Shown: one piece after another, positions 21,307 to 21,849 of the stretch | Position numbering within the stretch: the stretch's first letter is position 1 | Layout of the letters: each line of letters opens with the position of its first letter | IMG/VR virus record: IMGVR_UViG_2700989363_000008 | Span: 1-31,580 of that record | Source of the DNA: a virus | Taxonomy: Duplodnaviria > Heunggongvirae > Uroviricota > Caudoviricetes | Strand: one strand, 5' to 3' | Length of the DNA stretch: 31,580 nt | The notes under the pieces: model-generated | The model's database searches: none | Seen by the model: the letters and a program-made list of their open reading frames with translations, nothing else | What the model was told of the DNA's origin: nothing | Translations under genes and position numbers: made by a program

Positions 21307-21370
21307 TGGCCTTTGATTAACGATCAACTTCTGATCACTCGTTCAAGCAAACTATAAAAACACCTGTCCC

Positions 21371-21384
21371 CGTGACTGGTCACG
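21371..21384. repeat. Palindrome family 2 copy (inverted): CGTGACTGGTCACG, extended to CCCCGTGAC-tg-GTCACGGGG (21368-21387)
   Basis: Reverse complement of the 14-mer at 10855 and 17509; here with 9-bp arms, at the head of the anti-immunity region. Confidence 0.7.
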
Positions 21385-21434
21385 GGGTAAAATGTCTTTG
21401 CAAATTATTGACGTGTGCGTCGTTTTGACGGTAA

Positions 21435-21519
21435 AGTTACTCCGCTGCGGCAAATTCCGCAGCCGGGCGTGAGAACCCGGATAAACGAAGCGCACAACAC
21501 GCGCCAGCGTGTTTTTTTG
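21435..21519 (+). ncRNA. Candidate c4-type antisense RNA in the anti-immunity leader
   Basis: Hairpin CTGCGG-caaattc-CGCAG, box GCGTGAGAAC-CCGG-ATAAACGAAG, then intrinsic terminator ACACGC-gcca-GCGTGT-TTTTTTT (21497-21519). The downstream leader 21581-21607 is nearly the reverse complement of the box. Boundaries approximate. Confidence 0.4.
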
Positions 21520-21684
21520 TGTGTATATACCTGCGCATATCCGATTTATGGTGGCTCAGGCGGGGCTGACTTCGGTCAGGCCGGTTTCTTCGTTTGCCGG
21601 TATTCTCACCCCCGCTTGGGCTACCACCATTCAAGAGCGTGAGAACTCTGGTGGTAGCACGACCAATTAAACGGAGTGCATACC

Positions 21685-21849
21685 ATGTTCAAATTCAAAT
21701 TTGCGGCAGTCGTTCGCACAGACAAAAAGTCACACATCCATCATCTTTCCACCATCGCGTCATCTGAACGGGAAGCTCGTCGCCAGTTCGCCAGCCGGTT
21801 TGTCCTGGTATTGTCTGCCCGTATTCCGGTGCGCGAGGTGGCTGCATGA
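21685..21849 (+). CDS. Small ORF (54 aa) at the Icd position of an immI/immA-type operon
   Basis: ATG 21685 with SD ACGGAGTG; MFKFKFAAVVRTDKK...; stop overlaps the next start (ATGA). Below the ORF-track length cutoff. Assignment is positional only. Confidence 0.35.
   Translation: MFKFKFAAVVRTDKKSHIHHLSTIASSEREARRQFASRFVLVLSARIPVREVAA

Follow-up and report, generated by a model that had tools for sequence, protein, structure and literature searches.

The DNA analysed here, a stretch of 31,580 nt referred to below as the window, is a linear plasmid-prophage resembling N15 (Ravinvirus). RepA (16901-20884) and TelN (23031-24944) flank a leader and three downstream genes in the layout of an N15-type immA region, and the gene order repA...leader-icd-antA-antB-telN is syntenic with N15 genes 37-29. 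The leader is 78.9% identical to that of N15 over 299 nt. The locus contains the following features.

21368-21387, no strand assigned: palindrome, CCCCGTGAC-TG-GTCACGGGG, core CGTGAC-TG-GTCACG
21408-21437, + strand: predicted promoter of the anti-immunity operon (N15 Pa counterpart), TTGACG, 18-nt spacer, TAAAGT
21444-21519, + strand: short terminated leader RNA of ~75 nt, homologue of IsrK, P4 seqA and c4-a1b1
21469-21475, + strand: a1 box, GUGAGAA, looped out by hairpin 2 of the short RNA (8-nt loop), complementary to a'
21483-21490, + strand: b1 box, AAACGAAG, single-stranded, complementary to b'
21496 to ~21519, + strand: intrinsic terminator with a 7-bp stem (21496-21513), GCCA loop and U7 tail
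21544-21631, + strand: C4-family antisense RNA (counterpart of N15 CA, P4 CI and P1 c4), Rfam C4 (RF01695)
21588-21595, + strand: b' box, CUUCGUUU, displayed by the second C4 hairpin in a loop of 10 nt
21603-21609, + strand: a' box, UUCUCAC, a single-stranded internal segment of the C4-like RNA
21620-21658, + strand: a2-presenting hairpin, with a2 (GUGAGAA, 21639-45) in an 8-nt loop that repeats the a1 loop exactly
21669-21676, + strand: b2 box, AAACGGAG, complementary to b' (one G-U pair) and including the icd-like Shine-Dalgarno sequence GGAG
21685-21849, + strand: icd-like gene, 54 aa, first in the operon (NCBIfam phage_ICD_like, E = 1.1e-18)
21846-22079, + strand: antA-like gene, 77 aa (PHROG 10889 'anti-repressor', E = 1.3e-18)
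22076-22858, + strand: antB-like BRO-N gene (N15 gene 30 homologue) with an in-frame TAA at 22241-22243

Orthologues of the icd-like gene are annotated Icd in PY54, phiKO2 and Klebsiella elements. The icd stop and the start of the antA-like gene overlap in ATGA, and by synteny the antA-like gene corresponds to N15 gene 31 and to Gp28 of phiKO2, which carries the annotation 'similar to N15 AntA'. Both of these ORFs were intact, and the antB-like ORF carried a nonsense codon; intact homologues were compared, and Pfam Bro-N matched both halves of the interrupted gene. Judged from the sequence, this codon may partly disable the anti-immunity output of the window copy.

Upstream of the operon, the 20-bp palindrome reported in an earlier note on this DNA was found as described, its arms being 9 bp long and its 2-nt centre not palindromic. 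It lies 21 bp upstream of the -35 hexamer, its core occurs three times in the window (10856, 17510 and 21372) and three times in N15 at syntenic places, and its position upstream of the promoter was kept in 12 of the 18 loci compared. It is probably a protein-binding site. An N15 SopB centromere site was rejected as its identity, SopB sites reading GTGCGACC-NN-GGTCGCAC (PMC7205306) and being present elsewhere in the window. It is also unlike the annotated N15 OL/OR sequences of CB operators, and as a LexA box (CTGT-N8-CTGG) it was judged a poor match to the consensus. A search of literature text for the palindrome sequence returned nothing relevant. The promoter at 21408-21437 was the sole sigma-70-like site in 21200-21900, with no second promoter between the terminator and the C4-like RNA in the same scan. 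Its -35 hexamer was invariant across 15 relatives, and the predicted transcription start, ~21444, is where the Rfam isrK match begins.

Covariance-model searching of the leader placed three Rfam families above their gathering scores in the canonical order: c4-a1b1 (RF03163; 48.8 bits against 46.7, 21431-21483), isrK (RF01394; 68.1 bits against 50, 21444-21517) and C4 (82.2 bits against 45, model positions 1-87 of 87). The isrK and C4 pair was also present at the orthologous place in N15, PhiR46_1, YDC107_1, PY54, phiKO2, P4 and phiARM81ld. The CDS once annotated in N15 as 'cA secondary immunity repressor' has its start at the ATG within the 5' stem of C4. The C4 match, which the earlier note had proposed as a check, and the icd/ant genes downstream bear out its suggestion of an anti-immunity leader of the P1/P7 c4-icd-ant kind. 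The antisense architecture that it described is present with the roles swapped: it had taken the short unit (21435-21519) for the c4 RNA and called the region of the true c4 homologue (21544-21631) the downstream mRNA leader. The short unit is instead the a1/b1-bearing element, as its matches to c4-a1b1 and isrK indicate.

The minimum free energy (MFE) fold of the short RNA contained hairpin 1 (21444-63), hairpin 2 (21464-79), single-stranded b1 and the terminator, so that it combines the two 5' hairpins and Rho-independent terminator of the isrK/c4-a1b1 families with scores at or above gathering. Hairpin 1 was 100% paired across relatives, with three pairs changed on both sides. The terminator, previously placed at 21497-21519, is real with slightly different limits (stem from 21496, T7 run to 21518), and it matches those annotated at the orthologous place in N15 (as a stem_loop) and phiKO2. 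In folding calculations the terminator hairpin formed with a probability of ~0.98 whether a1/b1 were blocked or free, which leaves the sequence without an obvious antiterminator through which an antisense RNA could modulate termination. An alternative hairpin, GCGC...GCGC (21490-21504), was considered as an antiterminator and rejected; it was 2.4 kcal/mol worse and poorly conserved in other b-types.

In the fold of the C4-like RNA (MFE -47.9 kcal/mol), 21549-65 paired with 21610-26 as an outer stem of 17 bp, enclosing a UUCG hairpin at 21566-79 and another hairpin at 21580-21601. The RNA also carries a 3' CCA (21627-29), which is not universal, as N15 has CCC. In 15 relatives the outer stem was 100% paired, with three pairs changed on both sides, hairpin 1 was 98.7% paired, with four of its five pairs changed on both sides, and hairpin 2 was 97.8% paired. 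A long outer stem and two hairpins with compensatory changes are the hallmarks of the C4 family. Opening energies were 0.03 kcal/mol each for a' and b', 0.09 for a1 and 0.12 for b1; since each box costs ~0 kcal/mol to open, all four are accessible. C4 is a substrate of RNase P (PMC2190699), and in P1 the expression of Ant is regulated by C4 RNA and Icd (PMC8201110).

We found that the exposed a' and b' boxes are complementary both to the upstream pair a1/b1 and to the downstream pair a2/b2, as expected of a C4 RNA. The 10-mer GCGTGAGAAC is present exactly twice, at 21467-76 and 21637-46, so the second copy noticed earlier is genuine and lies 1 nt away from the position given for it (21636-21645). 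As the earlier note had also stated, this copy is displayed in the loop of a stem, formed by GCTACCACCA/TGGTGGTAGC (21620-29 with 21649-58, 10 of 10 pairs). The 5' arm of this hairpin doubles as the 3' strand of the outer stem of C4, and the two structures are consequently mutually exclusive. The site before the ribosome-binding site of the small ORF is indeed a target, and the boxes pointed out earlier are real recognition elements: GGAG (21673-76) stands 8 nt before the ATG at 21685, and b2 covers it in the window. In some types among the relatives b2 adjoins the Shine-Dalgarno sequence instead of covering it.

Since whole-segment RNAduplex predictions were long, riddled with loops and uninformative, pairing was evaluated by box-level duplexes, opening energies and shuffles. 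A repeat search located the complement of the upstream box at 21588-21614, where the earlier note had it at 21581-21607; the coordinate errors of that note amounted to 1-7 nt overall. Its wording 'almost exactly complementary' was too strong, as the 27 nt show 78% complementarity, made up of two perfect blocks, AAACGAAG/CTTCGTTT (8 nt) and GTGAGAA/TTCTCAC (7 nt), with a partly matching spacer. The duplex of 21464-21492 with 21584-21612 (a1b1:b'a') had a dG of -32.4 kcal/mol, which was reached by none of 1000 dinucleotide shuffles (z = -4.8), and was the strongest interaction at the locus. The a2 and b2 blocks alone were not significant within the window sequence (86/1000 and 194/1000 shuffles, respectively), and their reality is established by covariation across relatives.

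In 15 relatives, the complete model of structure and pairing was 93.8% paired, against 38-48% with the partners slid, and none of 500 column shuffles reached the observed covariation score. The a'-a2 helix was 100% paired and the a1-a' helix 90.5% paired, each with five of seven pairs changed on both sides. About half of the matches in an IMG/VR 15-mer scan were chance hits in unrelated DNA; only those with both the a2 hairpin and the conserved 3' stem of C4 were kept. A Watson-Crick a'-a2 helix of at least 7 bp was present in all 45 distinct N15-like leaders, whereas non-cognate pairs averaged 3.05, so the complementarity is conserved in related genomes, as the earlier reading demanded. The a1, a' and a2 boxes switched in concert, a' and a2 without exception, and the 45 leaders combined at least seven a-types with 16 distinct b' loops in 26 ways. 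The b2-b' pairing was weaker and its register varied among relatives; the 55.7% paired in a fixed-column count understates it, because the register shifts between types, and a register-free comparison of longest helices was used. The survey amounts to a natural compensatory-mutation experiment, with clean evidence for each of the four RNA-RNA contacts.

We considered whether, in line with the earlier note, the short RNA of 21444-21519 might be a trans-acting regulator of icd-ant expression, its a1/b1 boxes pairing with 21588-21609 of the read-through transcript and either remodelling that transcript or titrating the C4-like RNA. This is possible, although we think it rather unlikely. Its isrK match of 68 bits, its own terminator and its fully accessible a1/b1 boxes suit such a regulator, as does the strength of the a1b1:b'a' duplex, which is adopted in the full read-through MFE structure and is there reminiscent of isrK-orf45 in its inactive 'structure A'. 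The short IsrK of Gifsy-1 binds the equivalent stretch of its own read-through transcript in trans and activates translation instead of repressing it, with support from compensatory mutations (PMC4825925), and P4-like prophages require an element of the IsrK kind (PMC3632133). Such a role, however, would add to a C4-type mechanism and not replace it, leaving the duplication of a2/b2, their co-variation with a'/b' and the conserved tRNA-like fold of the downstream element unexplained. The Gifsy-1 model also needs translation of orf45, and among the 45 relatives the equivalent ORF, which overlaps the C4-like RNA, keeps neither its frame nor its length.

That ORF is the basis of another reading, in which 21548-21670 encodes a small regulatory protein, the 'ash family protein' (formerly N15 'cA repressor' and P4 'cI/ash'); we regard this as very improbable. 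Pfam Phage_ASH matched the translation (E = 3.6e-9), CDS annotations exist in CP088379.1, U63086 and X51522, the 'ash family protein' label stands in a 99.7%-identical plasmid, and the overlapping orf45 is translated in Gifsy-1 (PMC4825925). Across the 45 relatives, however, the ORF ended after 8, 10, 15, 28, 30, 31, 35, 40, 42 or 65 codons or, in the others, ran without a stop through the ~165 nt examined downstream of the ATG, and its frame relative to icd was spread over all three phases. The substitutions were compensatory for RNA pairing and not synonymous. Phage_ASH is most simply a family built from translations of a conserved RNA gene, and the public 'ash family protein' and 'cA repressor' CDSs are most likely such translations. 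The idea that an unremarkable intergenic region with a terminator shows the complementarity and the repeated 10-mer by chance, to which the 7-8-nt a2/b2 matches would conform in a single sequence, is refuted by the covariation, that is, by the joint switching of a1/a'/a2 through seven sequence types and the column shuffles, as well as by three curated RNA families above threshold, and its probability is negligible.

These results make it very probable that the stretch 21368-21690 serves as leader to icd-antA-antB, the anti-immunity operon of an N15-like linear plasmid-prophage, under the control of an antisense RNA of the C4/CI/CA family. The leader belongs to the already known family of P1 c4, P4 CI and Salmonella IsrK, and it carries little weight as a discovery, the N15 system having been described in 1999, the RNA families being in Rfam and homologues having been studied in P1/P7, P4 and Gifsy-1.

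By analogy with these homologues, RNA processing, the direction of regulation and the control of termination may be pictured as follows. The sigma-70-like promoter would start a transcript at ~21444, and most transcripts probably end at the intrinsic terminator, giving the ~75-nt RNA with a1 looped and b1 single-stranded. Read-through transcripts are predicted to carry a tRNA-like element of ~81 nt (21549-21629), which would be excised into a stable antisense RNA, as in the P1 and P4 homologues, where RNase P makes the 5' end. Its a'/b' boxes would pair with a2/b2 on the read-through mRNA and block icd translation; this would also shut off the presumably translationally coupled antA and antB, each start overlapping the stop of the gene before it. 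The a'/b' boxes may also bind a1/b1 of leaders that are still being transcribed or have been terminated, and in N15 such pairing by CA RNA was reportedly linked to premature termination by Ravin et al. in 1999. Premature termination is the reported outcome in P4 (PMC4825925). The short RNA may in turn serve as an IsrK-like decoy or activator; in Gifsy-1 the short a1/b1 RNA competes for a'/b' and turns translation on (PMC4825925).

The survey of relatives indicates that heteroimmunity types are built from two boxes that can be exchanged independently. We tentatively suggest, as a possibility that we would not favour at present, that recombination among N15-like plasmid-prophages reassorts the a and b boxes as a combinatorial code of specificity, in which both boxes must match for control and the short a1/b1 RNA acts as a type-specific decoy or activator, making a three-RNA switch.

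Among the closest known systems is N15 immA, which comprises the Pa promoter, a terminator, CA RNA and icd-antA-antB (Ravin, Svarchevsky, Deho 1999, cited in PMC4488713 and PMC3632133). The window shares with it the orthologous position between repA and telN, the gene order, the annotated terminator and the upstream palindrome. It differs in the antB nonsense codon, in the gene upstream of the leader and in the boxes, N15 having a = UCUCAAC and b = ACAAGAAG where the window has a = GUGAGAA and b = AAACGAAG. As both specificity boxes differ, the two elements should not cross-regulate.

The immI region of P1/P7 is said to be ordered a1 b1 - c4(a' b') - a2 b2 - icd - ant1/2, an arrangement attributed to Citron and Schuster (1990). 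The window has the same Rfam C4 family, an antisense RNA likewise set between two targets, a target over the icd ribosome-binding site and icd followed by an antirepressor gene. The tRNA-like fold is also shared and is consistent with RNase P processing (PMC2190699). Unlike P1/P7, the window has an intrinsic terminator between a1/b1 and the antisense RNA, so that most of its transcripts may never reach the antisense RNA. It further encodes AntA and a BRO-N AntB in place of P1 Ant1/2, and its replicon is a linear plasmid-prophage.

In the immunity region of satellite phage P4, the a1/b1-bearing element is named seqA (PMC3632133) and the order is seqA - CI RNA (seqB) - seqC. P4 has the isrK and C4 pair, a boxes identical to those of the window in all three copies (GUGAGAA/UUCUCAC) and b2 over a Shine-Dalgarno-like AGGAGG. 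Its b boxes (UUCACAGG/CCUGUGAA) are different, the gap from the short unit to the C4-like RNA is ~108 nt against 26 nt in the window, and the genes that it controls are the P4 replication genes. Given the identical a box, P4-like satellites and N15-like prophages that reside in one cell might, on the tentative reading above, influence each other in part through these RNAs.

The isrK-orf45-anrP locus of Gifsy-1 in Salmonella (PMC4825925) differs from the window in that trans-activation was demonstrated there and depends on orf45 translation, whereas the corresponding ORF of the window is not conserved and the first regulated gene is icd. Hfq binding, accumulation and trans action of the short RNA were shown only for Gifsy-1 IsrK (PMC4825925). 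The two loci have in common a short IsrK-type RNA that ends at a terminator which some transcripts pass or are predicted to pass, ~30 nt in the middle of IsrK that pair with a downstream stretch, a downstream RNA that is processed and stable in Gifsy-1 (STnc1160) and predicted to be so in the window, and an antirepressor as the regulated output.

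The region 21368-21690 belongs to an N15-like linear plasmid-prophage, in which it forms the leader of the anti-immunity operon. This assignment was made because the N15 counterpart, where a 'putative rho-independent terminator' is annotated, has gene 33 on one side and genes 32-31-30 on the other, and these last three are icd, antA and antB of the immA (anti-immunity) operon (PMC4488713, PMC10612081); the phiKO2 annotation agrees with this naming. Nucleotide matches to 21300-22100 were found in Escherichia phage PhiR46_1 (95%), YDC107_1 (genus Ravinvirus; 88%), Klebsiella phage NAR688 (82%) and phage N15 (78%), and 21400-21700 recurs at 99.7% identity on E. 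coli plasmid CP088379.1, with adjoining genes annotated as telomere resolvase. The leader lies in the window between two large genes:

16901-20884, + strand: RepA-type replication protein, 1327 aa
23031-24944, - strand: protelomerase, 637 aa

The nearest public record, CP088379.1 (6579-22879), is a 36.6-kb 'circular' plasmid with the icd-ant-telN block present twice in mirror orientation, the pattern expected for a hairpin-ended linear replicon assembled as a circle. The gene directly upstream of the leader (20995-21306) encodes a 103-aa product with a signal-peptide-like N-terminus and no Pfam or NCBIfam match; it was assigned to PHROG 26765 (function unknown), and in PhiR46_1 it bears the annotation 'Spackle exclusion protein'. 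Since N15 carries a different gene (gp33) there, this position looks like a variable cargo slot. The window contains five dispersed SopB centromere inverted repeats of the N15 type, (G/A)TGCGACC-NN-GGTCGCA(C/A), at 5705, 5925, 9027, 14821 and 17264, which match N15 IR1-IR4 (PMC7205306), whereas N15 has four copies. An Rfam IS009 match (27790-27993, - strand; 126.2 bits, gathering score 117) lies downstream of an ORF pair (25592-26758 and 26758-27723) that, by position only, corresponds beyond telN to N15 sopA/sopB.

An Rfam scan of the entire window at the gathering threshold gave three matches in the region:

21431-21483, + strand: c4-a1b1 (RF03163), 48.8 bits (gathering score 46.7)
21444-21517, + strand: isrK (RF01394), 68.1 bits (gathering score 50)
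21544-21631, + strand: C4 antisense RNA (RF01695), full length, 82.2 bits (gathering score 45)

The isrK and C4 pair was also detected at the corresponding site in N15, PhiR46_1, YDC107_1, PY54, phiKO2, P4 and Aeromonas phage phiARM81ld. [quoted passage not shown] These matches bear out the earlier note in its c4-type family assignment and its recognition boxes. The roles that it gave the two RNAs were swapped relative to the c4 paradigm: its 'small terminated RNA' bears the target copies, and its 'mRNA leader' holds the c4 homologue. We refer to the upstream boxes on the short RNA as a1/b1, those on the C4-like RNA as a'/b', and the copies before icd as a2/b2.

21408-21437, + strand: sigma-70-like promoter TTGACG-18-TAAAGT, the sole such site in 21200-21900; implied start ~21444, the first position of the isrK match
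21444-63, + strand: short leader hairpin 1 (predicted fold)
21464-79, + strand: short leader hairpin 2 (predicted fold), whose 8-nt loop CGUGAGAA bears a1
21483-90, + strand: b1, AAACGAAG, single-stranded in the predicted fold, followed by the terminator
21549-65 with 21610-26, + strand: C4-like outer stem (17 bp), enclosing two hairpins, the first capped by UUCG
21588-95, + strand: b', CUUCGUUU, in the 10-nt loop of the second C4-like hairpin
21603-09, + strand: a', UUCUCAC, in an 8-nt single-stranded segment of the C4-like element
21627-29, + strand: 3' CCA of the C4-like element
21620-58, + strand: downstream hairpin, its loop again CGUGAGAA (a2)
21669-76, + strand: b2, AAACGGAG, including GGAG, 8 nt ahead of ATG 21685

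The 3' strand of the C4-like outer stem doubles as the 5' arm of the downstream hairpin. Its stem GCTACCACCA/TGGTGGTAGC, previously described without coordinates, was located at 21620-29 with 21649-58, and the loop that it closes displays the second GCGTGAGAAC copy, at 21637-46 rather than 21636-45; the first copy lies at 21467-76, within the box proposed at 21467-21490. The intrinsic terminator (7-bp stem and T7) is present at 21496-21518, one nucleotide from the 21497-21519 reported, and the complement of the upstream box exists at 21588-21614, not 21581-21607. To call it 'almost exactly complementary' was too strong, because its two perfect blocks, CTTCGTTT and TTCTCAC, are part of an inverted repeat 27 nt long that is 78% complementary. 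The predicted duplex 21464-21492 : 21584-21612 reached -32.4 kcal/mol, attained by none of 1000 dinucleotide shuffles. In isolated RNAs, the predicted cost of opening a', b', a1 and b1 was 0.03-0.12 kcal/mol, and such near-free opening would suit kissing-type initiation.

By themselves the short downstream blocks were not significant within a single sequence (dinucleotide shuffles), so comparative evidence was needed. Alignment of the leader from 15 sequenced relatives showed a nearly invariant scaffold (promoter, hairpin stems, terminator and C4 stems) and hypervariable box positions that changed in concert. The a'-a2 helix was paired at 100% in all 15 sequences and the a1-a' helix at 90.5%; in each, both sides had changed at five of seven pairs, those of a'-a2 showing as many as three pair types apiece. 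The entire pairing model was 93.8% paired versus 38-48% with partners slid by 1-3 columns, and none of 500 column shuffles attained the observed covariation score. A 15-mer scan of IMG/VR contributed further leaders, and removal of chance matches left 45 distinct ones, with 7 a-types, 16 different b' loops and 26 combinations; the two boxes that make up the specificity code appear to reassort freely. In all 45, the cognate a'-a2 helix reached at least 7 Watson-Crick bp (non-cognate mean, 3.05 bp), and the b1-b' helix averaged 9.0 bp for cognate versus 6.0 bp for non-cognate pairs. The complementarity is clearly kept in related genomes.

Protein annotations coincide with the C4-family RNA at window 21548-21670, CP088379.1 8149-8271, P4 529-945 ('cI gene product') and N15 413-715 ('cA repressor'). 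For the ORF over the C4-like RNA, CP088379.1 gives the annotation 'ash family protein', and there is a match to Pfam Phage_ASH (PF10554). Among the 45 leaders it ranged from 8 to 65 codons, or lacked a stop in the ~165 nt examined downstream of the ATG, and all three phases relative to icd were represented. Since neither length nor frame is conserved, the ORF is, judged from sequence, not under coding selection, and the 'ash', 'cI', 'cA' and PF10554 protein calls are probably artefacts of RNA-gene translation. The start ATG of the old N15 CDS 'cA: secondary immunity repressor' (U63086) lies within the 5' stem of the C4 match. This agrees with cA having later been recast as 'a small processed RNA', the wording used in the title of Ravin et al. 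1999 (cited in PMC4488713).

Downstream, the icd-like gene (54 aa; NCBIfam, E = 1.1e-18) is followed by an antA-like gene (PHROG 'anti-repressor', E = 1.3e-18) and a BRO-N gene. The starts of the downstream genes overlap the preceding stops as ATGA, which would allow translational coupling. The BRO-N antirepressor-like gene (22076-22858; N15 gene 30/antB homologue) has an in-frame TAA at 22241-22243, after codon 55, whereas the homologue is uninterrupted in CP088379.1, YDC107_1 and N15; that of PhiR46_1 is truncated near the same point, with the remainder missing.

How the leader most likely works is inferred from homologous systems. Most transcripts from the operon promoter Pa would stop at the terminator, whose hairpin has a predicted probability of ~0.98 in the free leader. 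The C4-like RNA would be released from read-through transcripts, probably through RNase P cleavage, for which P1/P7 C4 provides precedent (PMC2190699). Its pairing with a2/b2 would mask the icd ribosome-binding site and shut down icd together with the antirepressor genes coupled to it, in the way that P1 c4 RNA silences icd/ant (PMC8201110). The a'/b' boxes also fit a1/b1, which may cause premature termination, as the discussion of PMC4825925 describes for P4 CI RNA pairing with seqA and seqC. This step is the least certain, because an antiterminator explaining a1/b1-dependent termination was sought in the leader sequence and not found. In N15, CA RNA reportedly promotes termination at Ta as well.

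In Gifsy-1, translation is switched on when short IsrK RNA pairs in trans with a complementary segment of the read-through form of its own transcript (PMC4825925). For the window, the predicted fold of the entire read-through transcript contains the corresponding pairing in cis, a1b1 with b'a'. A decoy or activator role for the short terminated RNA is therefore a live possibility that would not exclude C4-type control, and the IsrK precedent lets the earlier note's idea that this RNA is a regulator stand as a secondary mechanism.

The palindrome claimed from 21368 was found as CCCCGTGAC-TG-GTCACGGGG (21368-21387). Exactly three copies of its 14-bp core, CGTGAC-NN-GTCACG, are present in the window (10856-10867, 17510-17521 and 21372-21383), and N15 has three at syntenic positions (28550, 33237 and 39269). 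One site lies 21 bp upstream of the anti-immunity promoter -35, one ~610 nt inside repA, and one at the boundary between the homologues of N15 genes 46 and 47, overlapping the gene 46 stop and abutting the gene 47 Shine-Dalgarno; the gene 46 homologue falls in a PHROG labelled 'transcriptional regulator'. A SopB site was rejected (different sequence), as was a CB operator (no resemblance to annotated CB operators), and a literature search for the palindrome gave no match.

The system is already known, occurs in a known phage group and is recognised by curated models, and what this analysis adds is descriptive only: the box reassortment, the probably artefactual protein annotations and the sharing of the a box, but not the b box, with P4. 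In all three copies (21469-75, 21603-09 and 21639-45), the a-type of the window, GUGAGAA/UUCUCAC, is exactly that of satellite phage P4, whereas the b boxes differ. P4-like satellites and prophages of this type could conceivably recognise each other in part.
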